The notes under the pieces are model-generated. The model was given only the letters and a program-made list of their open reading frames with translations. It had not been told where the DNA came from and searched no databases. The position numbers were made by a program, and so were the translations under genes. A stretch of DNA of 64,000 bases from contig QMVG01000002.1 in the NCBI GenBank assembly GCA_003660975.1, forward strand, positions 7,996-71,995, read 5' to 3'. Positions within the stretch are counted from its first letter, which is position 1, and each line of letters opens with the position of its first letter. Source of the stretch: Candidatus Micrarchaeota archaeon. Lineage in GTDB: Archaea > B1Sed10-29 > B47-G15. Shown here piece by piece: positions 3,365-18,468 of the stretch.

Positions 3365-3372
3365 GAAAATAA

Positions 3373-3969
3373 TTATGTATTAACTCTTTTACTAACCTTT
3401 TGCTTTGCTATCTGCTTGGCCAATCTTCTTTCAGATATCTCACCATAGAGCCACGATAGACCCGCGAGTATTAGAAAGAAAAATACGAAAAAGTTTGGAT
3501 TCACCACAGTGCTTGCCTTTTCCATCAGAAATATCCAAAAAAGCAGTCCTAAAACATTTCCAACAGCGATGCTCTTATATGCTTGGTTCCTTGGCAGTTT
3601 AAAAGAGTAAGCGAAAACAGCTGCCCATAAAAAACCCATTGAGAAAGCCATGAAAACAGTTGCCACATTATGCCCCAGATAACCCCACTTTTTTTGAAAG
3701 ACCTTGAGCAGCTGTTCAGGAGCCTTTTTTGCCTTCCTGAATTCTCTTTCCCCTATACTTGAAAACAGAGAAAGAATTTTGTTCTCTGCCTTTTTTACAT
3801 AATCTACCTTGCTTAAGAATATGAAAAGCAACGGCAACGGAGCAGTGTAGCAAGTAAAGAGGAATGCAAAGGTGAGCTCCTTAGACCAAAATTGTATTGC
3901 ATAGGGCACAGCTGTAGCAGGGCCCAATGTATAAGTTAGCAGGAACATGTAAAGCAAATTTATAGGCAT
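3373..3969 (-). CDS. Hypothetical polytopic membrane protein
   Basis: 198 aa with 5 to 6 hydrophobic segments and a basic C-terminus. Its stop lies 9 nt upstream of the rad50 start, so the two are probably co-transcribed. No family recognised. Confidence 0.4.
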   Translation of the reverse strand: MPINLLYMFLLTYTLGPATAVPYAIQFWSKELTFAFLFTCYTAPLPLLFIFLSKVDYVKKAENKILSLFSSIGEREFRKAKKAPEQLLKVFQKKWGYLGHNVATVFMAFSMGFLWAAVFAYSFKLPRNQAYKSIAVGNVLGLLFWIFLMEKASTVVNPNFFVFFFLILAGLSWLYGEISERRLAKQIAKQKVSKRVNT

Positions 3970-4425: not shown

Positions 4426-4676
4426 CTTATTAGCGTGACATCAAGGCTTTCCATTTCTCTTACTCCGGCAAGAGACCTTATCTTTTCCTCTGTTTCCTCC
4501 GGCTTATCTTTCTTGTCGTCAAAGAGGATGCCAACCTTTATCACTTCAAGGCCAAATGCAATTGGCTCTCTTTGCACGCTTTTTACTTTATCTATCTTAC
4601 TTATTTCGTCCACAAGCTGCGCTAAATCTGCATTTTCTTCAGGATATATTCTATACACTGCCATTGCCATTCCCAT
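4422..4676 (-). CDS. ef1b: Translation elongation factor aEF-1 beta
   Basis: The region AVYRIYPEE...VDEISKIDKVKSVQREPIAFGLEVIKVGILFDD...SLDVTLIS matches archaeal EF-1beta. The start is placed at the internal Met just after the upstream Zn-ribbon gene stop (the track ORF extends to 4715). Confidence 0.7.
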   Translation of the reverse strand: MGMAMAVYRIYPEENADLAQLVDEISKIDKVKSVQREPIAFGLEVIKVGILFDDKKDKPEETEEKIRSLAGVREMESLDVTLIS

Positions 4677-4684
4677 AACAACAC

Positions 4685-4840
4685 CTACGGACCAACAAAG
4701 CCACAAACAGGGCACGTGTACGGAACAACAGTTCTCTTACAGAGATCACACCTTACTATCTCTGCCTTGCCGCAGTTTGGACATTTGAACTTTACATAGT
4801 TGTCTGTAACTTCCCTGTTGCACGATGTACATCTTATCAT
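4685..4840 (-). CDS. Zn-ribbon protein (COG2888-like) conserved upstream of ef1b
   Basis: Not in the ORF track (51 aa). Reverse-strand translation gives MIRCTSCNREVTDNYVKFKCPNCGKAEIVRCDLCKRTVVPYTCPVCGFVGP, with four CxxC pairs. The Zn-ribbon to EF-1beta gene order is a conserved archaeal pairing. Confidence 0.55.
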   Translation of the reverse strand: MIRCTSCNREVTDNYVKFKCPNCGKAEIVRCDLCKRTVVPYTCPVCGFVGP

Positions 4841-4916
4841 AATTCCACCTCAAAAAGAAGCACTATTATTTCACATAGTCTTGTTTATAAACATTTTGGC
4901 ACATAAACTTTACTAT

Positions 4917-4988
4917 GCCCCTGTAGTTTAGCGGATAGAACGCAGGCTTGCGGAGCCTGTGACCCGAGTTCAAATCTCGGCAGGGGCG
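4917..4988 (+). tRNA. tRNA-Arg (anticodon GCG), no encoded CCA
   Basis: Cloverleaf folded by hand. Acceptor stem GCCCCUG/CAGGGGC, D-stem GUUU/GAAC, anticodon stem CAGGC/GCCUG with loop UUGCGGA (U33, anticodon GCG, G37). T-arm CCGAG-UUCAAAU-CUCGG, discriminator G. The 3' flank reads CTA, so CCA is not genomically encoded. Confidence 0.65.
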
Positions 4989-6266
4989 CTAACCTTTTCT
5001 GAAATAAAGTTCCATCATCTCCTTATGTTTTAAAACATCTTTTCCTGTTCTTATTTTTGCTTTTTTAGCAAGTTTTTGATAATGTGAAGGAACAACTATG
5101 CCTTCTTTTAATAATTGCCTTATAAATTCTTCTGCCTTCACAAATCTCCTTTTCCTCCAAGCGTAAACCCTGCTTCTGTAAAACCAAAAGTCTGGATTTT
5201 TTTCTATGAACGCCTTTGTGTTTTTTTCATCCCATATCTCAGGTCCTTTGTGCTTCACAACAGAACTCAACTCATCACTCAATAGTTCCATTAATATAAC
5301 AGACTCCTTCTTTTCATCAGTCCAGTAAAAGCTCCTGTAAACCTCAAACTCATTATCCCTTAGTTGTTCTTTTAACATCTTTGCCATCTTTTCAAGCTGT
5401 GACCAAGCAATTTCAGGAACCACATCAGGATATGGCATTGATATACTTATCAATTTCCTTCCTTGAGCCTTCTTCTTCAAATCAATCTTCTCATGTTTCC
5501 CAAAAAACTGTTCTTCGCTTGGATTTTCAAGATAGCTTCTGCAAGCCCATATGAATTTGCTGAGACTTGTCCTATCAACAGCACTGGCGACATTTCTTTC
5601 AGGGTCAACAGGGTCTATCACTATTAAAGGTTCTATGAAGGACCTGGTGTTTTTTCCATGGCCTTCAATATCTATTACTGTCTTCCGCTCCCACCTAGCC
5701 GCATTTTTTAAGAGTTCTTCGAAGCTGCCATAGTGCAATATCAATAGTTCGCAAAGATAGCCAGAGAAGCCATGTGTTTTTTGGTCGGCCCCATAGCAAT
5801 TTATATTTTTTAAAAACTGTTTTAACAGCAGGACCTCTCTTTTGTGTTTCTCTTTTAGCCTTTCCATCAGGTATTCATTGTGGAGAGGTGTCCTATCAAC
5901 AGCACTTTTTATTTTCTGCCCGGGCTTTATCTTATAACAAGGCACGAGCTCCACATAGAAACCCTTTACTTTTCCCTTAACATATGGATGCTCAGCATAG
6001 TGTGTTTCTGTCTTCTTAAAAACCTTTTTTCCCAAATCCTTTATTTTTTTGTCAAGCATCTCTTTTGGCATGTTTGACGGGAAAAATACGAAAATGTCAA
6101 TGTCTTTTATAGGTTTTAAAGCAGTCCCTCTGGCCACGCTGCCTACAAGCACAGCTTCGTAGTTCTCCTTGTTCAGCTTCTCAATGATTTTTTTAGCAAC
6201 TGCCCTGGCCTTCTCGATTTCCTTCTCAGAAGGTTCTATCTTTTTGATTACCTCTTCAAGCTGCAT
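4989..6266 (-). CDS. cca: tRNA CCA-adding enzyme (archaeal class I nucleotidyltransferase)
   Basis: GSVARGTALKPIKDIDIFVFF is the pol-beta-type nucleotidyltransferase motif. Length and downstream motifs fit archaeal Cca. The start is placed at the internal Met (MQLEEVIKK), because the track's N-terminal extension is low-complexity. The stop abuts the tRNA 3' end. Confidence 0.75.
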   Translation of the reverse strand: MQLEEVIKKIEPSEKEIEKARAVAKKIIEKLNKENYEAVLVGSVARGTALKPIKDIDIFVFFPSNMPKEMLDKKIKDLGKKVFKKTETHYAEHPYVKGKVKGFYVELVPCYKIKPGQKIKSAVDRTPLHNEYLMERLKEKHKREVLLLKQFLKNINCYGADQKTHGFSGYLCELLILHYGSFEELLKNAARWERKTVIDIEGHGKNTRSFIEPLIVIDPVDPERNVASAVDRTSLSKFIWACRSYLENPSEEQFFGKHEKIDLKKKAQGRKLISISMPYPDVVPEIAWSQLEKMAKMLKEQLRDNEFEVYRSFYWTDEKKESVILMELLSDELSSVVKHKGPEIWDEKNTKAFIEKNPDFWFYRSRVYAWRKRRFVKAEEFIRQLLKEGIVVPSHYQKLAKKAKIRTGKDVLKHKEMMELYFRKG

Positions 6267-6300: not shown

Positions 6301-7821
6301 ATGGAGCTACTTGAAGAGAGAAAGAATGCGAGAATATATCGTTCATCTCCTTGGCACATCTATGAGCTAAAGTTTCCTGACCTGAACAAAGACGAAAAGG
6401 AATTTGTCGAGCTGTTCAGCAGAGCCTTGCTGAAAAAATACTCTGCAAGGGAACTTGAAATACTTTTCATAAAGGACAAAGAAGAGGAAGCCTTTGTGAA
6501 TAGGATATATGAACTACTGTCTCAAATAGGTGACACAAGCATACAAAAGCTCAGCGATGAAAAGGAAGAGGAGATAAGACAGAAAATAAGCCGTTTTGTA
6601 AAACAAAACATCAGCAATTTAGAACATCCATATGAGCTGTCTGATCTGTTATTTCACGAAATTGTAGGTCTCAGCAGAATTGATTACCTCCTAGAAGATG
6701 ATACTCTTGAGGAGATTATGATAAATTCCCATAAAAAACCTGTTTTTGTTTATGATAAAAAATATGGTCTATGTAAAACCAACATCCTTTTTGATTCAGC
6801 AGAAGAGCTGCTCGCTTTGGTGGAACGCATTGCCTCATACGTGAATAAAGATTTGAATAAAGATAAGCCACTTCTTGATGCCAGATTGCCTGATGGCTCT
6901 AGGGTGAATGCCACGATTGCACCTGCATCTCCTATGGGAGCCACACTTACTATCAGGAAGTTTGGGAGAAGTTCTCTGAGCATTACTCAGCTTATTAAAA
7001 ATAAAACCATAAGTCCTGTTGCAGCTGCTTTTCTTTGGATGGCAGTTGAGGGTCTATCTATATGTCCTCTTAATATGCTAATTGCAGGAGGCACGAGTAG
7101 CGGCAAGACAACCACCTTAAACGCCCTAACAGTTTTCATTCCAGAGAAAGAAAGAATAATAAGCATTGAAGACACACTGGAATTGAACTTACATGATAGG
7201 GAAAATTGGGTCCAGTTAGAGGCAAGATACGGTCCTTATGAAAAAGAGCTCAGCTTAAATGATTTATTAAAAAACGCCTTAAGGATGAGAGCTGACAGAA
7301 TCATAGTAGGAGAGGTTAGAGGGGAGGAAGCAGAAACTATGTTCACTGCGATGGACATAGGTCAACAAGGTATGATGGGAACCATGCACGCTAACAGCGC
7401 CAAGGAGGCTATAATAAGGCTGCAATCTCCTCCAATGGCTGTGCCTAAAGCAATGTTCTCCTTATTGGACCTCATTGTAATGCAGCATAGAATGAAGCTT
7501 CCAGGACAAGGGGTGGTTAGAAGGCTTACTGAAATTTGTGAGGTAAGTTTGATGGATGAGCAGGTGCTTCTCAATAACCTCTTCTCCTTTGACCGTCAAG
7601 ATTTCTCTTTAAAGAGAACGTCAATACCCTCACAGTCTGTTGAGAAGTGGGCCACTTTGACTGGAAAAACTAAGGCAGATATTAGCAAGGAGATAAGCAA
7701 CAGAGCCCGTCTCTTAAATAGCATGGCTGAAAAAGCTATTTTTGACTACCCTGCAATAAGGAAAGTAATTAATGCTTACCTATCAGATCCTTCAAGTGTT
7801 TCAGATTTAAATCCATCTTAA
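6301..7821 (+). CDS. Type II/IV secretion-family ATPase (FlaI/TadA/VirB11-like), orphan paralogue
   Basis: LDARLPDGSRVNATIAPASP..TIRKF, Walker A AGGTSSGKTTTLNAL, Asp box/Walker B RIIVGEVRGEEA, His box GTMHAN. The start is placed at the internal Met (MELLEERKN). The track ORF's first 44 aa overlap cca and look spurious. Confidence 0.8.
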   Translation: MELLEERKNARIYRSSPWHIYELKFPDLNKDEKEFVELFSRALLKKYSARELEILFIKDKEEEAFVNRIYELLSQIGDTSIQKLSDEKEEEIRQKISRFVKQNISNLEHPYELSDLLFHEIVGLSRIDYLLEDDTLEEIMINSHKKPVFVYDKKYGLCKTNILFDSAEELLALVERIASYVNKDLNKDKPLLDARLPDGSRVNATIAPASPMGATLTIRKFGRSSLSITQLIKNKTISPVAAAFLWMAVEGLSICPLNMLIAGGTSSGKTTTLNALTVFIPEKERIISIEDTLELNLHDRENWVQLEARYGPYEKELSLNDLLKNALRMRADRIIVGEVRGEEAETMFTAMDIGQQGMMGTMHANSAKEAIIRLQSPPMAVPKAMFSLLDLIVMQHRMKLPGQGVVRRLTEICEVSLMDEQVLLNNLFSFDRQDFSLKRTSIPSQSVEKWATLTGKTKADISKEISNRARLLNSMAEKAIFDYPAIRKVINAYLSDPSSVSDLNPS

Positions 7822-9292
7822 AATCAAAGCGCTTCTTTTCCGTTTTAGCGCTGCTCTCAATTTTTCTTTTTATTATGCCCTCTTTTATCATGAATTCCAC
7901 ACCTGATTTTATCAAATCTTCAGAGTATTTTGTCATCTCACTTATCGCTTTTATATTCACTAGGCCCTTATTTTCTTTTATTATTCTAAATAATTCGTCC
8001 AAGAAGCTGTCATTAAAGGCAGCATTATCTTTAAGCACCTCATATTCCCCGTTTATGTCTGCTTTGAGTGCTGGAATTTTCCGCTTTGCCATTTTGGTCA
8101 CTGTTTTTGCTTTCGCTTGAATAAGCAAGACAACAATAATGGCAATAGCCAAGACCAGCGCTATGTAAAATATGGAATTACTTTCGCTTATACTCATTAA
8201 AAACGAGGTTGCCTCAAAATACGCCTTGTTTTTGTCTTCCATGGGATCTACTTTCACCAACCTCATCATCGGCTCTTCATATATCACTTGTGCTGATGCA
8301 GGTACCTTGCTAAATAATGGGTTTTTTATCCACTGCTCGTTGTTGTAGTATTCAACCCACGCATAATAACTTCCTCCTTTCTCAGCCACCACCACCTTGC
8401 AAGGCTCTGACAGCTTATCACAGGCAGTATCATAATACGCAGCAGCAGATATAAAATCATTCAATTCTCCATGAAGGTCAACACTGTGAACAATTCTGGA
8501 AGCGCCTATGTTCTCCAATCTATCTAAGATCATTTTATTTAACTCATCTATAGTGGCAACTGTTTCAACATCTCCCCTCGTTCTAAAGCTTTGCTGAGGC
8601 ACATAAGCAGTCAGCTCTAAAGGAATATACAATTGTCTTTTTCTCTGTATGTTCATCGGATAATAAATAGTTCTTACTGTCATCTGAGCATTTGGCTGAA
8701 GCGCTGGGTTGCTTATGCTAACGATATGCCATGGAATCTCCTGAAAGTTTATTTTTTCAGTTTTTAGTGAAATGCCTGGAAAGACAACCCCCAGACTTGC
8801 CCCCTCGCCCTCTTTTGGCATAAAGAGCAAGTAATTCGCACCTTCTCTAAATTGGGAAGCATCAAATATAGTCATATTCTCCTTACTGCTAAAATTGAAG
8901 TTGAGCGTTATTGAGGCGCTCTCTCCCTTATTTTTTATCTTGACTACTGTTTCAATAAAAGCATTGTATATGTTTATCTCAATGCCTACATCAACATTGC
9001 TTATTTCATTGCTTATTTTTAGCCTGTAGCTATCCGCTGGGTTGAATTTGTTATCGCTTCCACCTGCCAATATCACAAATGAATTTCTTTCTATTGGCTG
9101 CCCGTTTACATATATCTGTGGCAGTAAAGTCACATAATACCTTTCAGAAATTATCGCTTTATCAGAGAGAAGCATTGGTAGCTCTATACTGTAGCTATCA
9201 GTGCTTATGAAATAGTAATTTTCGTAAGTATATGGGTTGCTTACGCAATACATAGCAGGCATTATAATCAAAAGCAACAGCAATCTTTTCAT
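7769..9292 (-). CDS. Secreted/membrane-anchored protein with cytoplasmic C-terminal winged-helix-like domain
   Basis: N-terminal signal peptide (MKRLLLLLIIMPAMYC). An extracytoplasmic region of about 370 aa rich in N, S and Y. A single TM (IFYIALVLAIAIIVVLLIQA). Then a roughly 110-aa basic C-terminal domain (ELFRIIKENKGLVNIKAISEMTKYSEDLIKSGVEFMIKEGIIKRK) that resembles a wHTH. Its 3' end overlaps the convergent ATPase gene by about 50 nt. Confidence 0.4.
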   Translation of the reverse strand: MKRLLLLLIIMPAMYCVSNPYTYENYYFISTDSYSIELPMLLSDKAIISERYYVTLLPQIYVNGQPIERNSFVILAGGSDNKFNPADSYRLKISNEISNVDVGIEINIYNAFIETVVKIKNKGESASITLNFNFSSKENMTIFDASQFREGANYLLFMPKEGEGASLGVVFPGISLKTEKINFQEIPWHIVSISNPALQPNAQMTVRTIYYPMNIQRKRQLYIPLELTAYVPQQSFRTRGDVETVATIDELNKMILDRLENIGASRIVHSVDLHGELNDFISAAAYYDTACDKLSEPCKVVVAEKGGSYYAWVEYYNNEQWIKNPLFSKVPASAQVIYEEPMMRLVKVDPMEDKNKAYFEATSFLMSISESNSIFYIALVLAIAIIVVLLIQAKAKTVTKMAKRKIPALKADINGEYEVLKDNAAFNDSFLDELFRIIKENKGLVNIKAISEMTKYSEDLIKSGVEFMIKEGIIKRKIESSAKTEKKRFDFKMDLNLKHLKDLIGKH

Positions 9293-9807
9293 AGCTTCAC
9301 CACGTGTAGTTTACTGTATATGGGGCCTCTTGTTGTTAGTTTGCTCTCATATAACACAAGGCCCTCTGCTGTGAATTCTCCCAAATCATTTAGGTTGAAT
9401 ACCTCTCTTATTTCCATTGGAGGTCTTTTTTTAACCCTTGCAAGTGTTATATGAGGTATAAACGCTTTGTCTTTTTTAATGCTTTTTAAAGGCTCTAAGG
9501 ACATGACTTTTTTCTCTAATTCCATTAGCTTATCTGAAACTGCAGAAGCCCATATAACGTTAATTCTTTCTTTACTTGGAAATGCGGAGATATAGCTTAC
9601 TCTTACCTTAAAGCTTCCAAAGCCTTCTAAACAATCTAAGGCATCTGCTATCTCATTTGCTTTCTCCTCTCTTATGTCTCCTAAAAACACGATGTTTATA
9701 TGCAGGTTTTCTTTTTCAACACATTTTACATCAAAGCGTTTTAGAAAATTTAATGCTTTGACAATCTTTGGTAATGGAGGCACAGCAATTCCAATAAAGG
9801 CCCTCAT
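9289..9807 (-). CDS. thpR: RNA 2',3'-cyclic phosphodiesterase / 2'-5' RNA ligase (LigT/ThpR, 2H phosphoesterase)
   Basis: Two H-x-T/S-x motifs in the expected positions (HINIVFLG and HITLARV). Size of about 170 aa. Confidence 0.65.
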   Translation of the reverse strand: MRAFIGIAVPPLPKIVKALNFLKRFDVKCVEKENLHINIVFLGDIREEKANEIADALDCLEGFGSFKVRVSYISAFPSKERINVIWASAVSDKLMELEKKVMSLEPLKSIKKDKAFIPHITLARVKKRPPMEIREVFNLNDLGEFTAEGLVLYESKLTTRGPIYSKLHVVKL

Positions 9808-11618
9808 TTGGCTTTCACCTTTACAAATTTCAATAACTCTGCCAGGGCAATGTCATCAGTTTCGTAAAATAAAGCCCCATCGCAGAGTTGCTGCAATCTC
9901 CTAACAACTGGAGGCTCTGCAGCTTTTGGTTTTATTTTTTCGCTTGACATCTCGATATCATACCTCTTGTTGTGTTCAGCGAAGTGTTCGTGAGCATCAC
10001 TTCCCACAACTTCCCCTATCCTAAACTTCAGTCCACTTGCTCTCTCCTCTTCCCTTATCTTCCTTCTCGTGAATCTAAGTATTTTTTCCATAAGGTCAAG
10101 TTCCTTACTTGTAAATGTTTCGCTGCCACTTAATATCTTAACTGCCTGAGGAAGCCCTTCATAAGTAATTATATTGAAATAATTTTCAAGCTTGATATAT
10201 GCTTCACCTTCATACTCCGCTGTAAGAACATTTAGAACATCATTTCCGGACAGCCTTCTCTCAATTATCTCATATTTCTTTTTGCACACATCGAAGGCCT
10301 TCTCTATGACATCTTCAAGTTTGTTATAAAACACTGTTTCATTTTTATTTTCATAAGCAATCTTCACGATGTTTATACTAACACTCTGCATCACACCTCC
10401 TCTCATGTTCATTGTAGGTAGAGTGTTTCCATAAACTAGATTGTCGCCTCTCGTTAGGTAAACTTCCTGTTTGGCTTCTTTCAATAAGCTTCGGCAGTCC
10501 TCGCCACAATAGGTAACATTGATGTCAGGGTATAGAAAGCTAACCTCTGGATACGATTTGTCTCTCATATACATCATCTCTCTGAGAAAAGCCCTGCTTT
10601 CATCTTCGTACTCTCCATAAGTGCCTTTGAACTCCCCGCCCTTAGAAACCGCTTTCTTGGAGGATAGCTCTTTTGGGATTTCAGAGTCCATATTTATTGT
10701 TATGGCTTTTTTGCCCATCAATTCATAATTTATTTCATAAAGGAATTTTTGGCAAAGCTGCCTGATGCTTTTCTTGCTCATTCTCCTTATGTATGGAGCA
10801 ATGAAAACATTGAAGTGGTCAATGCTTATTCCTCCACTGACGAACTTTATACTTGCAAGAGCTGCCCTCACAACATGAGATATCGCCACCTCTGCACTTT
10901 TTGCAGGTTTTGTTTTTATTATACCTGGAAAGGCCAAACCATTCTTTAGAAAGACACGGATGTCATGCTCAAAACTTATTGGGCTGGTGATAAAGTCATG
11001 CAAGTCATGGATGTGAAGGTCTGCATTTAAGTGCATGTTGCTAATCTGCTGAGGCAGTATTCTAGTTAGTATGTATTCCTGCATGATGGCGTTTATGAAA
11101 CTTTCCTTAAACAGGCGGGGCGATGACATTGATTTTTTTCTTATCATTTGGCTAATATCATATACAGGAAGCCCTATACGGGTGTACTTCAACTTTTCAC
11201 TATCCATCCTTTTCTCAAGTAGTTTTGCGTTCACCATTTCTCTGATTAAGGGGGCGCTTATGTTTCTCAACTGCAGTTTTCTTATGTCATTTTCAACATT
11301 CTTGGCTATCTCTTCAGCCACAATCTTTGAAACCCTTGTTTCCTTTATTAGCGACTTGACTATTTTATCGCGCTCGAACGGTTCAATTATATTTTTTGAT
11401 GTTCTCACATTTATGAAATGATAAGACTCGTATTGCTGAGCAGCATTGGGGTCGTGTTTCTTTAGCTCTTCAATTACCATTTTATCTATGGTGGCTTGTA
11501 GGAGCTTTCTTTTCATCTTATCTTTTAGAGCAATAGCGACTTGACCAGCGAGCCAGAAGTCAATGCCTGCTTTTATGCACCTTTGTATTATGATATTTGG
11601 GTTTATCCTTTCAACCAT
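9804..11618 (-). CDS. ATP-cone domain protein, possibly ribonucleotide reductase (class III NrdD)-like
   Basis: Residues about 70 to 150 (VRTSKNIIEPFERDKIVKSLIKETRVSKIVAEEIAKNV) fit the ATP-cone consensus (V.KRDG..E.F...KI..). The roughly 450-aa remainder was not confidently assigned. The C-terminus shows no glycyl-radical RVCGY-type motif and no CxxC zinc ribbon. Confidence 0.35.
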   Translation of the reverse strand: MVERINPNIIIQRCIKAGIDFWLAGQVAIALKDKMKRKLLQATIDKMVIEELKKHDPNAAQQYESYHFINVRTSKNIIEPFERDKIVKSLIKETRVSKIVAEEIAKNVENDIRKLQLRNISAPLIREMVNAKLLEKRMDSEKLKYTRIGLPVYDISQMIRKKSMSSPRLFKESFINAIMQEYILTRILPQQISNMHLNADLHIHDLHDFITSPISFEHDIRVFLKNGLAFPGIIKTKPAKSAEVAISHVVRAALASIKFVSGGISIDHFNVFIAPYIRRMSKKSIRQLCQKFLYEINYELMGKKAITINMDSEIPKELSSKKAVSKGGEFKGTYGEYEDESRAFLREMMYMRDKSYPEVSFLYPDINVTYCGEDCRSLLKEAKQEVYLTRGDNLVYGNTLPTMNMRGGVMQSVSINIVKIAYENKNETVFYNKLEDVIEKAFDVCKKKYEIIERRLSGNDVLNVLTAEYEGEAYIKLENYFNIITYEGLPQAVKILSGSETFTSKELDLMEKILRFTRRKIREEERASGLKFRIGEVVGSDAHEHFAEHNKRYDIEMSSEKIKPKAAEPPVVRRLQQLCDGALFYETDDIALAELLKFVKVKAK

Positions 11619-11654: not shown

Positions 11655-12074
11655 ATGGAAGAAATTGATGAGACCGATGAGAAGATTATAGAGATATTAA
11701 AAAAGGACTCAAGGACTGCATATACAGATATTTCGAAGAAGCTAGGCCTGTCTGACGTGGCTGTTAAGAAGAGAATTGACAAGCTAATTGAAAAAGGCAT
11801 AATAAAGCACTTCTCAATCACCCTTGATTACGCAAAAATAGGAAAGCCCCTGAGGGCCTTTCTTCTTTTGAGGATGAAGCCCAGCTATACAGAGGACATA
11901 ATAGAACACCTGGCAAAAATAGATGGAGTACTCAACGTTCTTCAAACTGTGGGGAGTTATGATTTTCTAGTGGAGCTTGTTTGTAGGGATATGGGTGAAT
12001 TAAAAAGAATAGCAGAGGAGCAGATAGGCAATTTAGAGGGAATAAATGAGATAAGGACCTTAATAGGTGTTTGA
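11655..12074 (+). CDS. lrp: Lrp/AsnC-family transcriptional regulator
   Basis: N-terminal HTH (DEKIIEILKKDSRTAYTDISKKLGLSDVAVKKRIDKLIEKGII) plus a C-terminal RAM/AsnC_trans domain. 139 aa. Confidence 0.8.
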   Translation: MEEIDETDEKIIEILKKDSRTAYTDISKKLGLSDVAVKKRIDKLIEKGIIKHFSITLDYAKIGKPLRAFLLLRMKPSYTEDIIEHLAKIDGVLNVLQTVGSYDFLVELVCRDMGELKRIAEEQIGNLEGINEIRTLIGV

Positions 12075-12368
12075 GTGAAAATTGTTGCTGACTTAATGGA
12101 GAGTGAAGACCCAAAAAAGCTTTTAAGAGCTCTCAAAAAGCTCTTTCCAGATGCCAACTTTACAGTAGGCCCTTCATTTATAGAGGGAGAGTCAGATCTG
12201 GAAGAATTTTGGACATTGGTTGACAAAGCAAAAATAGGCCCCACAATCGAAGAACTGATAGATGCAAATGGCTTTGTAGACCTAAATAAGATAGCTGCCC
12301 TAGCAGGTAAAGTAGCAATTGACCAAGGCTCACCGATCGGCAAGATACGCGTCTTTTTTAGCAAATAA
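12075..12368 (+). CDS. Hypothetical protein
   Basis: 97-aa ORF starting with GTG directly after the lrp stop. Acidic. No family recognised. Confidence 0.3.
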   Translation: MKIVADLMESEDPKKLLRALKKLFPDANFTVGPSFIEGESDLEEFWTLVDKAKIGPTIEELIDANGFVDLNKIAALAGKVAIDQGSPIGKIRVFFSK

Positions 12369-12398: not shown

Positions 12399-13244
12399 AT
12401 GCTTAGAAAACTGCCAATTGCACTGCTTTTCATTTTAACAATCTCGCTAGCCAATATTTACATGCTTTATCCAAAGAGGATTACTTTTACTGAAGAGCGC
12501 TTAGACCTTGATGAGGGAGTTAGGTATCTTAAAGGCATAAACCTCGGTGATATGGCACCTGGTCAAACATTGAAAATCATAATTGACAGGAGAAGCAGCT
12601 CTGAAAGAAACCTACCTGGTGAGCAGTTTTTGTGGAATTATCTCGAAATTTCTTCTTACGAAGAGGGTTGGCAAGTGAGTTCATTTGAAACAGAGCCAAC
12701 AATGTTGAGCATAAGCATAACCGCTCCAAAAACAGCGTCAGGCACCTCTTCATTTTACCTCATCGCCAAGAATATAGAGCAAGAAGAGGGTTTGAGGACA
12801 CCTGAAAAGGTACTGCTGCAAGTGAACATAAAGCCAGATGTTTTTGACTACCTTGTAAGTGAAAATGAAACATATACAGCAGAGGCAGGCAGGTTGAATA
12901 ACGTAACATTTAACATAAAGAGCAGGTCTATTGCTATGGATAGTCTGCTTTTGGAGGCACAGACTTTGCCAAATAAATGGACAAAAGCAGCGTATATGGA
13001 TGTTGAACCTCTTGTTAACAACAAGGTAAGCTTGATGTTGGAGCCAATGGAGGAAGGTCTGTATCCTCTGACAGTGAAAGTGAGCAGAGCTTCAAATCCT
13101 GAAATAGTTGATTATTTCAACACGAGGTTAAGGGTGTATCCTACTATGGCTTCAAAGTTTAAGGCCTGTGCAGAAGGTTTTTCTATCACTAGCCTCGTTT
13201 TACAACCAATCTATTCCTTAATGGCGTTAATATCTTCACTTTAA
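12399..13244 (+). CDS. Hypothetical secreted protein
   Basis: N-terminal signal/TM (LPIALLFILTISLANIYML) and a 281-aa hydrophilic body. No family recognised. Confidence 0.35.
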   Translation: MLRKLPIALLFILTISLANIYMLYPKRITFTEERLDLDEGVRYLKGINLGDMAPGQTLKIIIDRRSSSERNLPGEQFLWNYLEISSYEEGWQVSSFETEPTMLSISITAPKTASGTSSFYLIAKNIEQEEGLRTPEKVLLQVNIKPDVFDYLVSENETYTAEAGRLNNVTFNIKSRSIAMDSLLLEAQTLPNKWTKAAYMDVEPLVNNKVSLMLEPMEEGLYPLTVKVSRASNPEIVDYFNTRLRVYPTMASKFKACAEGFSITSLVLQPIYSLMALISSL

Positions 13245-13254
13245 GACAGGTGAG

Positions 13255-14586
13255 TTGGTGTATTCAAAGAACATATCTGAGTTATTGGCTAAGATAAATG
13301 CGAATTACGGTGATTTTATAAAAATAGAAAAATCTGGCAGGCATTATGAAGGCATTTTAATGCCTCCGCCAGAAATTGGTGACAGCGATGCAATCATCAT
13401 AAAATTAAAAAACGGCTATAACATCGGTGTCTCTTATGATGCTTCTATGGCTGTATCTCTCATTGAAAAATCCAAGTGGAAGAAAAAAGAAACTAAGGTG
13501 AAGTTAAATTTTGACAAGAAAAAAAGCGATGTAGCGCTGATAAGCACAGGTGGGACCATAACATCCAAAGTAGACTATGAAACAGGAGGCGTTAGCTCTT
13601 TAATGAAAGCAGAGGAACTCATCTCTCTTGTGCCTGAAATTGTAGAGTGGGCGAATTTAGAGATAGTCACTCCCTTCAGCAGAATGAGTGAGTCGATAAG
13701 TCCGAAGGATTGGCAACAGCTGGCTAAGGCAACTTTTAAAGAACTCAAAAAAAGAGACGCCATTATAATAACCCACGGGACAGACACATTGCACTACACA
13801 GCAGCTGCCCTATCCTTTATGATAAGAAATCTAAACAAACCAATTATCTTAACAGCAGCCCAGAGGTCTTCTGATAGGGGAAGCACTGACGCTGCTTTGA
13901 ACCTACTCTGTTCTTCTATAGCAGCCTCTAAGTTAGATATAGCAGAGGTGTCCATATGCATGCACGCAAATATTAGCGATGATTTCTGTTATCTACTTCG
14001 TGGCACAAAGGTAAGAAAAATGCACAGTAGTGCAAGGAATGCCTTTAGACCAATAAACACCTTGCCAATAGCAGAGGTATGGCCTGACGGCAAGATAAAC
14101 ATTTTGTCTGACTACAAAAAGAGCAGCGATTTAGAAGCCAAATTAGACAACAAATATGAAGAAAAAGTGGCGCTTGTAAAAATATATCCTGGCATAAATT
14201 CAGATGTTTTGGATTATTATATTGACAGAGGTTATAAAGGGCTAATTCTTGAGGCCTTTGGATTAGGGCATGTGCCTACTGAGACGAGAGAAAAAAAGCA
14301 CTCACTTTACAATTCCATAAAAATGGCAATAGAAAGGGGAATATTTGTTGGCTTTGCTGCTCAGACCCTATATGGCTCGCTAAACCCATATGTTTACTCT
14401 AGCGGTAGGAAAATGTTGGATTTGGGCGTTGTCTACTTGAAAGACATGCTTCCAGAGGTAGCATTAGTGAAGCTGGGCTGGGTGTTAGCACACAGTAAAA
14501 ACATTGAGGAAACAAAGGCTTTGATGCTCAAAAATATCGCTGGAGAATTTAATGATAAAATCACTGCAGAGCAGTTTCTGTATTGA
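13255..14586 (+). CDS. gatD: Glutamyl-tRNA(Gln) amidotransferase subunit D
   Basis: N-terminal GatD-specific domain followed by an L-asparaginase fold with ISTGGTI and HGTDTLHYTAAALSFM motifs. Lies upstream of gatE. Confidence 0.85.
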   Translation: MVYSKNISELLAKINANYGDFIKIEKSGRHYEGILMPPPEIGDSDAIIIKLKNGYNIGVSYDASMAVSLIEKSKWKKKETKVKLNFDKKKSDVALISTGGTITSKVDYETGGVSSLMKAEELISLVPEIVEWANLEIVTPFSRMSESISPKDWQQLAKATFKELKKRDAIIITHGTDTLHYTAAALSFMIRNLNKPIILTAAQRSSDRGSTDAALNLLCSSIAASKLDIAEVSICMHANISDDFCYLLRGTKVRKMHSSARNAFRPINTLPIAEVWPDGKINILSDYKKSSDLEAKLDNKYEEKVALVKIYPGINSDVLDYYIDRGYKGLILEAFGLGHVPTETREKKHSLYNSIKMAIERGIFVGFAAQTLYGSLNPYVYSSGRKMLDLGVVYLKDMLPEVALVKLGWVLAHSKNIEETKALMLKNIAGEFNDKITAEQFLY

Positions 14587-14594
14587 GGGATTAT

Positions 14595-15116
14595 ATGATA
14601 ATAGGTGTCGCAGGTTACGCTGCAAGTGGAAAGGACAGCATAGCGGATTACTTAGAGAAGAAATATGGCTTTAAGCACCTGGATTTTTTTAGAGATATTT
14701 TGCTTTCAATGTTGAGGGAGAGGGGTTTGAAAGAAGACAAAATGAATGCCTCTGTTTTGGGAAATGAGCTCAGGCAGAACTATGGAAGGGGCGCTTTGGC
14801 AAAGTTGATGGCTGAAAGACTGATTGAAAACACGGATTATGTTATCACTGGTTTTAGGAGCCCTGAGGAGGTTGAAGAAATCAGGAAGAAAGGGGAATTT
14901 CTCCTCTTGTGGGTATGGGCACCGTTAAAGAAAAGATTCAGTAGGAGAAGGGACATAGACCCCCAAAACATAGAGGAATTTAAAAGAAGAGATGAGCTGG
15001 ATAAGGAAAAAGGCATGGATGAGGTTTTCAAAAGTGCAGACATTATAATAAACAATGAGGGCAGTATTGAGGAATTGCACCAGCTTATAGACAGCATTAT
15101 GGAGAAATTAAGATGA
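14595..15116 (+). CDS. P-loop NTPase, small nucleotide/nucleoside kinase-like (paralogue A)
   Basis: Walker A-like GVAGYAASGKDS at the N-terminus, about 175 aa. The C-terminal DPQNIEEFKRRDELDKEKGMDEV is shared with the downstream paralogue. Start placed at the first ATG (the track ORF begins at TTG 14583). Its TGA overlaps the next ATG (ATGA). Confidence 0.45.
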   Translation: MIIGVAGYAASGKDSIADYLEKKYGFKHLDFFRDILLSMLRERGLKEDKMNASVLGNELRQNYGRGALAKLMAERLIENTDYVITGFRSPEEVEEIRKKGEFLLLWVWAPLKKRFSRRRDIDPQNIEEFKRRDELDKEKGMDEVFKSADIIINNEGSIEELHQLIDSIMEKLR

Positions 15117-15640
15117 AGATAATCATCGTGGTTGGTCTCGTAAGAAGCGGAAAGGACACGGTTTCTGAGTATATTTCAAGAGCTTATGGCTATCAATTAT
15201 TGGTAGCAAGTGATGTTATCAGAGAGGAAGCCAAGAAGAGAGGAATAACACCAAGCAAAGAAAACCTTACAAAGCTTACAGAGGAATTATATGAGAATGG
15301 CTTTCAGGGCGAGATTGCAAGGCGTTTAATGAAGCGCTTTAGCTCGGACAGAGTCGTAATAAACGGCTTTAGGAGCCCTGTTCAAATAGACTTTCTTAGA
15401 AACGAATATAATGGAGATGTTTATGTTTTAGAAGTGTTCAGCCGCTCTGATCTGCGTTTCGCTAGGCGGGAAAATGACGATCCTCAAAATGAGGAAAAAT
15501 TTTTTGAGAGAGACAAGATAGACATAGAAAAATTTGCCCTAAATAAAGTGCTTGAGATGGCTGATTACAGAGTAAACAATAATGGCAGCAAAGAGGAACT
15601 ATATAAGCAGATAGATGAGTTTATGAAGGAGATTGAATGA
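15113..15640 (+). CDS. P-loop NTPase, small nucleotide/nucleoside kinase-like (paralogue B)
   Basis: Walker A-like VVGLVRSGKDT. It aligns by eye with paralogue A along its length (GFRSP motif, DPQN...F.RD..D.EK tail). Confidence 0.45.
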   Translation: MKIIIVVGLVRSGKDTVSEYISRAYGYQLLVASDVIREEAKKRGITPSKENLTKLTEELYENGFQGEIARRLMKRFSSDRVVINGFRSPVQIDFLRNEYNGDVYVLEVFSRSDLRFARRENDDPQNEEKFFERDKIDIEKFALNKVLEMADYRVNNNGSKEELYKQIDEFMKEIE

Positions 15641-17484
15641 ATTACAAGAAACTGGGTTTAAAAGTTGGCCTGGAATTTCACCAAAGATTGGATACTCATA
15701 AGCTGTTTTGCAATTGCTCCTCTGTTATGGAGGACAGTCCTGTGATTTACACTGTTACGCGAAGGCTTAGGCCAGTAGCAGGAGAGCTTGGAGAATTAGA
15801 CGAAGCAGCCCTTCAAGAGTTCAAGAGAGGAAAGGTTTTTGAATACGAGCTGAGAAAAGGAAGCTCTTGTTTGGTAGAACTTGATGAAGAGCCTCCACAT
15901 GAAGTCAACAAGGATGCTTTGCATATAGCGTTAACTATATCTCTCATGCTGAACTGCAACATTGTTGATGAGATTCATTTCATGCGAAAAACAGTGATCG
16001 ATGGGAGCAATACCTCTGGCTTCCAACGAACCGCAATGGTGGCGCACGGCGGTTTTTTGAAGACCCCTTATGGCAGGATACCAATAGAGGCAATCTTTTT
16101 GGAAGAGGAGTCGGCAGGCATAGTGGCCGAGACAGAAGAAAAAAAAGTTTACCGCTTGGACAGGCTTGGCATACCTTTAGTTGAAATAGCAACAGGCATC
16201 ATAGAAAAAGAGCCAAAAGAGATAAAAGACATTGCCTTGCGTCTCGGCCGCCTTCTCAGGTTGACAGGAAGGGTACAGAGGGGCATAGGGAGCATAAGAC
16301 AGGATGTAAACATTTCCATTGAGAAGGGCAACAGAGTGGAGATAAAGGGTTTACAGGAAGTAGAGCTTTTGGATAAGGCGATTGACTTAGAAATTAAAAG
16401 GCAGCTTTCGCTTTTAGAGATACAAAAAGAGCTAAAAAGAAGACAGCTGAAGCACGGCAATTATATCGTAAAGGATGTTACAGCTGCCTTTGAAGGCTGT
16501 GAGAACAATTTTATTAAGAAGGCCTTACAAAAAGGGCACAAAGTGTATGCCATGTATTTGCCTGGCTTTGAAGGAATTTTAGGAAAAGAGCTCACGCCCG
16601 GACGCAGGTTTGGCTCAGAGCTCGCAGACCACGCTAAGGGCTTTGGTCTTGGAGGAATAATCCACTCTGATGAAGACCTTGGAAAATATAAGCTTTCAGA
16701 TGCATTTAATAAGATTAAGAGAAAAGGTGAAGCTGTTTTGATAGTTGTCGGAGAAGAGAGAAAAGCATTGTCTGCATTACAGGACATATCCAATAGAATA
16801 AAGCAAGCATTTGACGGTGTGCCTAAGGAAACAAGAAGGTTCCTTCCAGATGGCAATTCTGCTTTTATGAGAGTGCTGGCAGGCGCAAAGAGAATGTATC
16901 CTGAAACAGATGTGCCGACAGTCAAGGTCAATAGTAAGATGCTTTCCGATATCAAAAAACAGCTTCCTGAGGATTTGGACACTGTTTTGAAGAAATTGAG
17001 AAAAATGGGTTTGAGCGAAGAATTAGCAGAAAGGGTTGTTATTAGCAAGAGAGCCAAGCTTTTTTATAAACTCGTTGATATGGGGGTCAGCCCCACGCTT
17101 GCAGCTTCAACACTGGAGGATGAACTAATTTCAATAAGGAGAGAGGGGCTGGATATAGATAATATATCAGAGAAATCTATTGAGGATATTTTTGTAGATT
17201 ACCTTAGAGGCAGGTTTTCGAAGGAAGCAATACCTAAAATACTGAGAAGCTTAGCGAAATCAACGGATAAAGATGTAGAAGCTGTCATCAAAAACTTAGG
17301 TATTGAAACCGTTCCTAAGGAAAAGATCGAAGAAGAGATAACGAGAATTATCAGAGAGGAAAATCTCAACTTGAGCGACAAAAGAAAGTCCTTCCGTGCT
17401 ATAATGGGAGAACTTATGAAAAAATACAGGGGAAGAGTTGATGGGGGCCTCATGGCAGAACTTGTTAAGAAAAAATTGGGGTGA
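15637..17484 (+). CDS. gatE: Glutamyl-tRNA(Gln) amidotransferase subunit E
   Basis: N-terminal GLEFHQRLDTHKLFCNC and the overall GatB/GatE-type fold, with a C-terminal GatB/YqeY-like tail. 615 aa. Confidence 0.85.
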   Translation: MNYKKLGLKVGLEFHQRLDTHKLFCNCSSVMEDSPVIYTVTRRLRPVAGELGELDEAALQEFKRGKVFEYELRKGSSCLVELDEEPPHEVNKDALHIALTISLMLNCNIVDEIHFMRKTVIDGSNTSGFQRTAMVAHGGFLKTPYGRIPIEAIFLEEESAGIVAETEEKKVYRLDRLGIPLVEIATGIIEKEPKEIKDIALRLGRLLRLTGRVQRGIGSIRQDVNISIEKGNRVEIKGLQEVELLDKAIDLEIKRQLSLLEIQKELKRRQLKHGNYIVKDVTAAFEGCENNFIKKALQKGHKVYAMYLPGFEGILGKELTPGRRFGSELADHAKGFGLGGIIHSDEDLGKYKLSDAFNKIKRKGEAVLIVVGEERKALSALQDISNRIKQAFDGVPKETRRFLPDGNSAFMRVLAGAKRMYPETDVPTVKVNSKMLSDIKKQLPEDLDTVLKKLRKMGLSEELAERVVISKRAKLFYKLVDMGVSPTLAASTLEDELISIRREGLDIDNISEKSIEDIFVDYLRGRFSKEAIPKILRSLAKSTDKDVEAVIKNLGIETVPKEKIEEEITRIIREENLNLSDKRKSFRAIMGELMKKYRGRVDGGLMAELVKKKLG

Positions 17485-17488
17485 GAGT

Positions 17489-17938
17489 ATGGTAACCATT
17501 CTTTGCAGTGCTTGTCTTTTAGGTGTTAACTGCAAATATAATGGAAAAGCAAGCCCTAACGAGAGGGTTTTGCAGCTAGGAAAGAAGTATAACCTAATTC
17601 CTGTTTGTCCAGAGCAATTGGGAGGTTTGCCCACCCCAAGAGTGCCTCAGGAAATTCAAGGCATGGATGGGGACGCAGTGCTAGATGGCAAATGCAAGGT
17701 AGTAAACAAAGAGGGCAAAGACGTTACAGAAAACTTCATTAGAGGAGCGCATGAAACACTAAAAATAGCCAAGCTTTTTAATGCCAAGCTTTTCATTGGG
17801 AAGCAAAGAAGCCCTTCCTGTGCATGCGGTGAAACATATGATGGTTCTTTTACTGGAAGGACAGTAAAGGGCGACGGTGTCACAACTGCCCTGCTGAAAA
17901 GAAACGGCATAAAATGTATGAGTCAAGAAGAGCTATAG
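17489..17938 (+). CDS. DUF523 family protein (TudS-like [4Fe-4S] thiouracil desulfidase family)
   Basis: MVTILCSACLLGVNCKYNGKA...IPVCPEQLGGLPTPR carries the DUF523 cysteine signature. Start placed at the internal ATG directly after the gatE stop. Confidence 0.6.
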   Translation: MVTILCSACLLGVNCKYNGKASPNERVLQLGKKYNLIPVCPEQLGGLPTPRVPQEIQGMDGDAVLDGKCKVVNKEGKDVTENFIRGAHETLKIAKLFNAKLFIGKQRSPSCACGETYDGSFTGRTVKGDGVTTALLKRNGIKCMSQEEL

Positions 17939-18468
17939 TTTGCAGCCCTTATTTTCTCGAAACTTGAGAGAAGCTTAAATTTGGCTCCAGGCTGATTTTT
18001 TTCAATGTCTTCAAGCATTTGCATTATGTACCCTTCCATTTCAGTATTAACGCAGTTTTTCTTTCTTTTATATGTTATACCTTCTAATTCCGCATACAAT
18101 TCGTTTTCCCTTGCATAAAACCTGCTGAGGACATTTTTATTTTCATACGCTTGGCCTGTGATAAATGCCTTGAGGTAATCCTTTAAGCTGCACTCAATGT
18201 TAGAGGCATCAAGCAGGATGCTGTTCTCTTCATTGCTCATTTTGTAGTAATACTTTTTAAGGTAATGTTTTACAATTGCATTCTCAAGGAAACTGTCTTC
18301 TTTAACATTTACTTTTGTTTTCTTATTTATGCCTCTTTTAGTTAATTCAAGCTTCAGCCTCTTTTCATATACTTTGATAAAGTGTTCCTTACACAGGTGT
18401 TGGCTCATATATGGCAGATATATAACTGCCTTTCTTGCACAGCGGGAGCAGTTCATAAAATCAACCAA
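17923..18468 (-). CDS. Hypothetical protein with N-terminal Cys-rich (Zn-ribbon-like) segment
   Basis: N-terminal CSRC...C..H motif and 181 aa. No PP-loop or other catalytic motif recognised. Confidence 0.3.
   Translation of the reverse strand: MVDFMNCSRCARKAVIYLPYMSQHLCKEHFIKVYEKRLKLELTKRGINKKTKVNVKEDSFLENAIVKHYLKKYYYKMSNEENSILLDASNIECSLKDYLKAFITGQAYENKNVLSRFYARENELYAELEGITYKRKKNCVNTEMEGYIMQMLEDIEKNQPGAKFKLLSSFEKIRAANYSSS

Follow-up and report, generated by a model that had tools for sequence, protein, structure and literature searches.

Two paralogous genes with a predicted nucleoside monophosphate kinase fold lie between gatD and gatE in a Candidatus Micrarchaeota contig

We analyzed a 64,000-nucleotide stretch of contig QMVG01000002.1 from a Candidatus Micrarchaeota archaeon (hereafter 'the window'), in which two genes for small P-loop proteins, here called K1 and K2, lie between gatD and gatE, the genes for the archaeal Glu-tRNA(Gln) amidotransferase. 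A reading of the letters without database searches (the sequence-only reading) had pointed to two paralogous P-loop genes at this position. Both open reading frames (ORFs) were indeed present on the plus strand, and their products are 36% identical over 174 residues (E-value 5e-33). The four genes are co-directional and form one block, with neighbors that overlap or are at most 8 nt apart:

13255..14586, plus strand: gatD, glutaminase subunit of the Glu-tRNA(Gln) amidotransferase (NCBIfam NF003217; Pfam GatD_N, Asparaginase and Asparaginase_C)
14595..15116, plus strand: K1, a 173-aa P-loop protein with a predicted nucleoside monophosphate (NMP) kinase fold; an alternative TTG start lies at 14583
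15113..15640, plus strand: K2, a 175-aa paralogue of K1 and the more divergent copy of the two
15637..17484, plus strand: gatE, kinase/amidotransferase subunit, full length and canonical (NCBIfam NF003107)

It had been proposed that all four genes are translationally coupled by overlaps. ATGA overlaps were found between K1 and K2 (15113-15116) and between K2 and gatE (15637-15640), and this part of the proposal stands; an overlap between gatD and K1, however, needs the TTG start at 14583. The ATG of K1 at 14595 lies 8 nt past the gatD stop and has GAGGG ahead of it, and public gene calls start K1 at this ATG, which gives a 173-aa product identical to the protein P0001. Comparison of K1 and K2 at the DNA level indicates that they are old copies. 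Runs of T occur within both coding sequences, with seven in K1 (14684-14690, D-F-F) and six in K2 (15500-15505, K-F-F); oligo-T tracts can serve as termination signals in archaea.

Both amidotransferase subunits were assigned by their equivalog models, with 499 bits for gatD against a cut-off of 310, and 739 bits for gatE against a cut-off of 456. In addition, the GatE of the window aligns end to end with that of Pyrococcus abyssi (1ZQ1, E-value 6e-148). We considered whether a separate kinase might offset a degenerate GatE and rejected this on the basis of the equivalog score and the 1ZQ1 alignment. With a full and canonical GatE, the amidotransferase has no gap for a separate kinase to fill.

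Next, we examined the fold of the two proteins. The AlphaFold2 models (predicted local distance difference test, pLDDT, of 95.2 for K1 and 93.6 for K2) contain five strands alternating with helices. Foldseek returned as the best match in the PDB the AMP-bound structure of SSO1041 (3LW7), a UPF0200 protein of Saccharolobus solfataricus, with template modeling (TM) scores of 0.82 for K1 and 0.87 for K2. Adenylate, UMP/CMP, shikimate and dephospho-CoA kinases were the next matches, and the Foldseek probability was 1.00 for SSO1041 and for the adenylate and UMP/CMP kinases. SSO1041 was also the best match by sequence in the PDB (E-value 1.4e-11 for K1 and 7e-13 for K2), although it is only 23-30% identical to K1 and K2, and homologues from bacteria of the candidate phyla radiation (CPR) are nearer, at 39-42%. 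The predicted structures confirm that K1 and K2 carry the P-loop NMP-kinase fold. The size and fold, which the sequence-only reading had described as NMP-kinase-like, are thereby borne out, and UPF0200, which it had listed for comparison, contains the closest solved relative; that reading had also made its kinase proposal depend on a P-loop fold being predicted, and such a fold was found. Literature searches for UPF0200 and SSO1041 found no published function.

The only Pfam models to match K1 and K2 above threshold were the generic AAA_17 and AAA_18 (K1, 39.7 bits with AAA_18 and 34.0 bits with AAA_17; K2, 52 bits with AAA_17), and NCBIfam PRK08356, named 'hypothetical protein', was among the sub-threshold matches. 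Phage and defense collections gave stronger matches. The phage deoxynucleoside monophosphate (dNMP) kinase family phrog_139 matched with E-values of 6e-17 (K1) and 8e-13, and the PADLOC dCTPase model matched in its kinase-like domain (E-value 1e-13). The anti-phage dCTP deaminase model NF041025 scored 30 and 25 bits (E-value 2e-7) against a cut-off of 400. Neither K1 nor K2 contains a deaminase domain, and no deaminase was found in their neighborhood.

The P-loops read GYAASGKDS in K1 and GLVRSGKDT in K2. Both proteins contain the GFRSP motif and the shared tail motif that had been quoted for them, with C-terminal tails DIDPQNIEEFKRRDELDKEK and NDDPQNEEKFFERDKIDIEK. The Asp that follows the P-loop Lys had been presented as a peculiarity of this pair, in a position normally taken by Ser or Thr, but it turned out to be the norm of the family. 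Of the 149 top representatives, 137 had a motif that could be scored; 95 of these have D after GK, 20 have G, 8 have S and 6 have T. When 18 sequences of the family were aligned, this Asp was nearly invariant. Adenylate kinase 1 reads GSGKGT and has Gly where K1 and K2 have Asp. The N-terminus of the T4 dNMP kinase, MKLIFLSGVKRSGKDT, carries a P-loop identical to the RSGKDT of K2, and the N-terminus of K2 matches its first 26 residues. An alignment of 19 sequences, which includes both K1 proteins, both K2 proteins and SSO1041, showed that G7, G12, K13, R88 (of GFRSP), R114, R117 and N154 (K1 numbering) are invariant in 19 of 19. These residues comprise the P-loop Lys and the set of Arg expected for phosphate handling by NMP kinases. 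We also considered whether K1, which lacks the Arg of 'SDxLRE', and K2, which lacks that of 'ELR', complete each other. This idea was rejected because the first Arg is also missing from the K2 of a related record (L038; SDVITDE), and singleton kinases such as that of L015 have neither Arg of the motif.

To see how large the family is, we searched 1.84 billion representative proteins with a profile and obtained 29,772 matches with E-values of at most 1e-3, 7,919 of at most 1e-10 and 1,544 of at most 1e-30. Eighteen of the top representatives are at least 300 aa long, and 14 of these were examined. Five are double kinases (P0143-P0146 and P0171) with a UPF0200-like N-terminal half and a K-like C-terminal half; the N-terminal halves of P0143 and P0145 are 34-39% identical to SSO1041, and two such domains thus recur together. 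In three (P0152, P0166 and P0214), the partner is a complete adenylate kinase, zinc lid included, and the remaining six carry a dCMP/cytidine deaminase domain (P0170, P0213, P0223, P0230, P0241 and P0271) and are about 310-370 aa long, shorter than the 532-aa defense protein DcdV. One more distant homologue adjoins a canonical adk. Since the fusion partners are adenylate kinase, dCMP deaminase and a second kinase, they place the K family in nucleotide metabolism, and that members occur fused to, or encoded beside, genuine adenylate kinases speaks against K being one. From these comparisons, K1 and K2 can be assigned as paralogues to a large, biochemically uncharacterized family of putative small P-loop NMP kinases, which appears to be related to the T4 dNMP kinase, to UPF0200 SSO1041 and to the kinase-like domain of DcdV-type deaminases.

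We then compared the arrangement across lineages. The neighborhood sample, against which the premise of a usually paired gatD and gatE was set, comprised 11 gatD/gatE neighborhoods (lineages), and genome contigs were scanned with a profile built from a 4-sequence alignment, which reaches close relatives only. Ten distinct lineages, the window included, have a kinase between gatD and gatE. Records of the other neighborhoods (L numbers; K, the kinase) show the following orders:

L003/L006/L020, L005/L007/L021, L008, L015/L016 and L022: gatD, K, gatE
L039: gatD, K, NUDIX (4555-5004), gatE
L040/L041: gatD, K, a 366-aa protein with no Pfam family (L040, 2900-4000), gatE
L043: gatD, SemiSWEET (91 aa, 3184-3459), K, gatE
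L038: gatD, K1, K2, DUF5680 (4521-5000), gatE, YfbR-like HD 5'-nucleotidase
L042 (Aenigmarchaeota): gatD and gatE with nothing between them but a HepT/MNT pair, which is on the opposite strand (3178-3945); no kinase

The gap between gatD and gatE in related archaea is therefore a slot that is permissive for unrelated genes. GatE of the kinase-containing lineages is 43-64% identical to that of the window. Because GatE of other phyla is already 45-48% identical to it, this group of lineages is not shallow; some of its records are labeled Candidatus Micrarchaeota, a DPANN phylum. K1 is 41-53% identical to the gatDE-linked kinases of the other lineages; where relatives have one kinase in the slot, that kinase is the orthologue of K1. 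Among homologues with a readable context, all those that share 41% identity or more with K1 lie between gatD and gatE, except P0008, whereas those that share 41% or less (P0008, P0020 and P0021, together with sequences from CPR and other bacteria) lie away from gatDE, some of them in bacteria that use GatCAB. Literature searches found neither a gatD-kinase-gatE order nor a kinase in gatDE operons.

The two kinases of L038 are reciprocal orthologues of K1 (50% identity) and K2 (57%), and GatE is 63% identical across the same split. Given this reciprocal orthology, the K1/K2 pair is older than the split between the window and L038. Neighbor-joining analysis (174 columns, 200 bootstraps) recovered the K2 pair in 200 of 200 trees and the K1 pair in 128 of 200, with the remainder poorly resolved. 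K1 and K2 were sisters in 0 of 200 trees, and we therefore rejected a recent tandem duplication. K2 may instead have arisen by an old duplication or by a second acquisition, between which the tree favors neither.

The block continues on both sides with further co-directional genes:

11655..12074, plus strand: Lrp/AsnC-family regulator (Pfam AsnC_trans_reg, HTH_24 and HTH_AsnC-type)
12075..12368, plus strand: 97-aa ORF with no assigned function (PF01877 match below threshold only)
12399..13244, plus strand: 281-aa ORF with no assigned function and no Pfam family, which stops 10 nt ahead of gatD
17441..17938, plus strand: TudS-like 2-thiouracil desulfurase (Pfam PF04463, 2-thiour_desulf, E-value 9.5e-44; gene call in L001)

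The Lrp/AsnC gene opens the cluster and is divergent from nrdD; it likewise lies upstream in the relatives L003, L005 and L043. At the position of the 97-aa ORF, L005 and L043 have ORFs of 96-99 aa, and a gene of 258-281 aa without a Pfam match precedes gatD in L003, L038 and L043; L005 has such a gene too, separated from gatD by ELP3. By their similar size and position in L003, L005, L038 and L043, the 281-aa and 97-aa genes may be part of the same conserved transcription unit. The TudS-like gene is the last of the block and shares 44 nt with the 3' end of gatE; it is missing from this position in the relatives examined. Enzymes of the TudS type recycle thiolated uracil nucleotides. Companion genes in or beside the gatD-gatE block, namely NUDIX and the HD 5'-nucleotidase-like gene in relatives and TudS and the upstream NrdD in the window, fit a theme of nucleotide salvage.

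Farther out on the minus strand, a 507-aa ORF without a Pfam family (7769-9292), matched by a 518-aa gene at the same position in L038, adjoins a gene for a LigT-like 2',5' RNA ligase/phosphoesterase (9289-9807) and nrdD (9804-11618). Downstream, a TtuA-like gene on the minus strand (17923-18468) encodes 181 aa and retains only the N-terminal LIM zinc-finger domain (PF22082). This truncated form is common to both genomes with the K1/K2 pair (8253-8819 in L038), while TtuA of the single-kinase relatives L003 and L005 is 299-300 aa long with a PP-loop ATPase domain and has a ThiS-like gene adjoining. Scans of the window for Rfam families and tRNAs gave a single tRNA-Arg, distant from the locus.

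Taken together, we lean towards the view that the kinase is a housekeeping or salvage enzyme for (deoxy)nucleoside monophosphates, that it entered a permissive slot of a constitutively expressed operon by one ancestral insertion and was inherited vertically in one lineage of uncultured archaea with small genomes, and that one sub-lineage gained a second copy. The fold, motif conservation, family membership, fusions and synteny are observed, and kinase activity, substrate class and passenger status are inferred from them. Under this proposal, K1 and K2 would bind ATP at the GxxxxGK P-loop, and a short lid bearing Arg residues (R114 and R117) would close. The gamma-phosphate would then be passed to a (deoxy)nucleoside monophosphate, gripped by the Arg of GFRSP (R88) and neighboring residues, so that salvaged nucleotides would return to the di- and triphosphate pools. 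The place in the operon would provide co-expression with housekeeping translation genes and not catalysis in the amidation of Glu-tRNA(Gln). The substrate is probably not AMP, and a pyrimidine (d)NMP is more likely. K1 and K2 probably differ in substrate, because K2 lacks one otherwise invariant Arg.

Several observations weigh against this proposal. The preference for pyrimidines comes from the fusion partners alone. The kinase is the sole constant occupant of the slot in 10 lineages, including L015, whose flanks are quite different, and its spacing to neighbors is usually 2-25 nt or a 4-nt overlap, with 126 nt to gatE in L022. The linkage is tighter than a neutral passenger requires, and hitchhiking does not fully account for it. 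Moreover, models of characterized kinases fall short of their cut-offs. The Pfam DNMK model PF21448 scored 23.5 bits (K1) and 22.8 bits (K2) against 27.1, in an alignment that covers only both ends of its 232 positions; CoaE PF01121 scored 21.7 bits against 27, and the archaeal cmk model TIGR02173 scored 19.9 (K1) and 26.4 bits (K2) against 102.1. For adenylate kinase, there was no PF00406 match, and adk models (TIGR01351) gave 16-22 bits against 155-284. Literature searches found no paper on the K subfamily and no measured activity for any member. In addition, the otherwise invariant Arg of 'ELR' (R60), present in K1, is Tyr or Lys in K2 (Tyr) and its L038 orthologue only, which suggests an altered second-substrate site. 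The K2 of L038 and the kinase of L039 read GKG-E/A and have no hydroxyl residue after the P-loop. Given these two features, some copies may bind nucleotides without catalysis.

This last point can be extended to the idea that K1, K2 or both are pseudo-kinases or regulators, in the manner of the DcdV-type kinase-like domain, with K2 as a degenerate modulator of K1. Besides the loss of Arg60 in both K2 proteins and the GKG-E/A P-loops, the likeness to the PADLOC dCTPase model in its kinase-like domain speaks for it. In DcdV, this domain is required for activity, although no phosphotransfer was shown (bioRxiv 10.1101/2021.03.31.437871). However, every copy, both K2 proteins included, has kept the Lys of the P-loop, the two Arg of the lid, the Arg of GFR and N154, and K2 orthologues that are 57% identical where GatE is 63% identical indicate that K2 is conserved and not decaying. 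We consider non-catalytic binding unlikely.

The sequence-only reading had raised the possibility of nucleotide-handling partners dedicated to GatDE. In one form of this idea, the kinase would be a bound subunit beside the GatE kinase site that supplies or regenerates ATP (2 ADP to ATP and AMP); in another, it would be a nucleotide sensor that gates the formation of Gln-tRNA(Gln), and K1 and K2 would act as a hetero-pair, specialized in the sub-lineage with both. The kinase would then be a third component of GatDE that couples the local supply of adenine nucleotides, or nucleotide status, to Gln-tRNA(Gln) synthesis. The persistence of the arrangement in 10 lineages whose GatE has diverged to 43-64% identity and whose flanks partly differ agrees with such a role, as do the ATGA overlaps, which suggest coupled translation, the nearest solved relative, which was crystallized with AMP, and the double kinases, which show that two such domains can function in one polypeptide. 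Against this, neither GatD nor GatE was seen in a fusion, the top 120 homologues of GatE ranging from 597 to 646 aa, and the fusion partners that do occur include no tRNA enzymes. Most family members, bacterial ones included, are not near gatDE, unrelated genes occupy the same slot, and, as noted above, association with real adenylate kinases argues that K is not one. GatE is canonical, and GatDE of P. abyssi and Methanothermobacter thermautotrophicus was crystallized without a kinase subunit (1ZQ1 and 2D6F). The enzymes of these two species function without one. We therefore regard an accessory role as quite unlikely; the case for dedicated partners consists of the linkage, conserved in 10 lineages of one archaeal group. 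By the refuting condition of the sequence-only reading, its proposal would fall if the genes encoded a widespread housekeeping kinase that is often adjacent to gatDE in many lineages. The kinase is widespread, as this anticipated, but its adjacency to gatDE in many lineages is confined to one clade.

We also asked whether the kinases could be dephospho-CoA kinases or the known-type CMP or adenylate kinase of the lineage. Joint Genome Institute (JGI) annotation labels P0005, P0014 and P0015 'dephospho-CoA kinase', and there are the weak CoaE, cmk and adk profile matches. The scores with TIGR00152, TIGR02173 and PF01121 are all far under the curated cut-offs, however; the CoaE model TIGR00152 gave 27 and 24.5 bits where 65.55 is required, in an alignment limited to the P-loop region. 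In archaea, dephospho-CoA kinase is of another family, which depends on GTP. This identification therefore seems very improbable.

Finally, a recent selfish or anti-virus insertion that splits the gatDE operon, which the sequence-only reading had offered as an alternative and for which the similarity to a defense deaminase domain and the HepT/MNT toxin-antitoxin pair in the Aenigmarchaeota slot might be cited, is effectively refuted, given that the GC content (0.40-0.41) equals that of the flanks, a search for direct or inverted repeats on either side found none of note, there is no deaminase or other effector, the defense-model match is to the kinase-like domain only, and the order is conserved across 10 divergent lineages, with the K1/K2 pair in two.

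K1 and K2 are thus new members of a known kinase family in a lineage-specific operon arrangement. Should the ordinary reading prove right, a very large family for which Pfam offers only the generic AAA_17 and AAA_18 models can be described as T4-dNMP-kinase/UPF0200-like NMP kinases. Salvage, to which the fusion partners point, is central to small-genome archaea and to CPR bacteria that are unable to make nucleotides de novo, and the gatD-kinase-gatE order, being conserved, can serve as a synteny marker for one archaeal lineage. The locus is also a test case for a nucleotide-handling partner in an indirect tRNA-aminoacylation pathway, which would be new if true.

Among known proteins, SSO1041 (UPF0200; 3H0K and 3LW7, 'adenylate kinase related protein') has about the same length (~175 aa) and the same fold as K1 and K2, and it shares with them the invariant G, GK, R88, R114, R117 and N154 and the C-terminal 'ADxxIxN' strand. 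It differs in its P-loop, which is GMPGSGKS instead of the SGKD[ST] of K1 and K2, and in the double-kinase fusions the UPF0200-like and K-like halves are distinct paralogues. The dNMP kinase of T4 (gp1; 1DEK, PF21448, phrog_139) has the RSGKDT of K2 and similar first 26 residues. K1 and K2 also resemble positions 170-230 of DNMK, which comprise the C-terminal strand and helix, and their match to phrog_139 is full-length. However, T4 gp1 has 241 aa, its middle part holds a large insert absent from K, and it is a phage gene, whereas K1 and K2 are cellular and chromosomal.

The anti-phage dCTP deaminase DcdV has a similar kinase-like (PLK) domain, and close K relatives occur as fusions with dCMP deaminase domains. 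In contrast to K1 and K2, which have no deaminase and lie in a housekeeping operon rather than a defense island, DcdV carries a zinc deaminase domain (HAE...PCxxC). With regard to the operon itself, archaeal adk and cmk sit in the ribosomal-protein/secY cluster. There, small nucleotide kinases are co-transcribed with translation genes while standing outside their chemistry, as K1 and K2 would be in the gatD-kinase-gatE block, although the kinase family and the operon are different.

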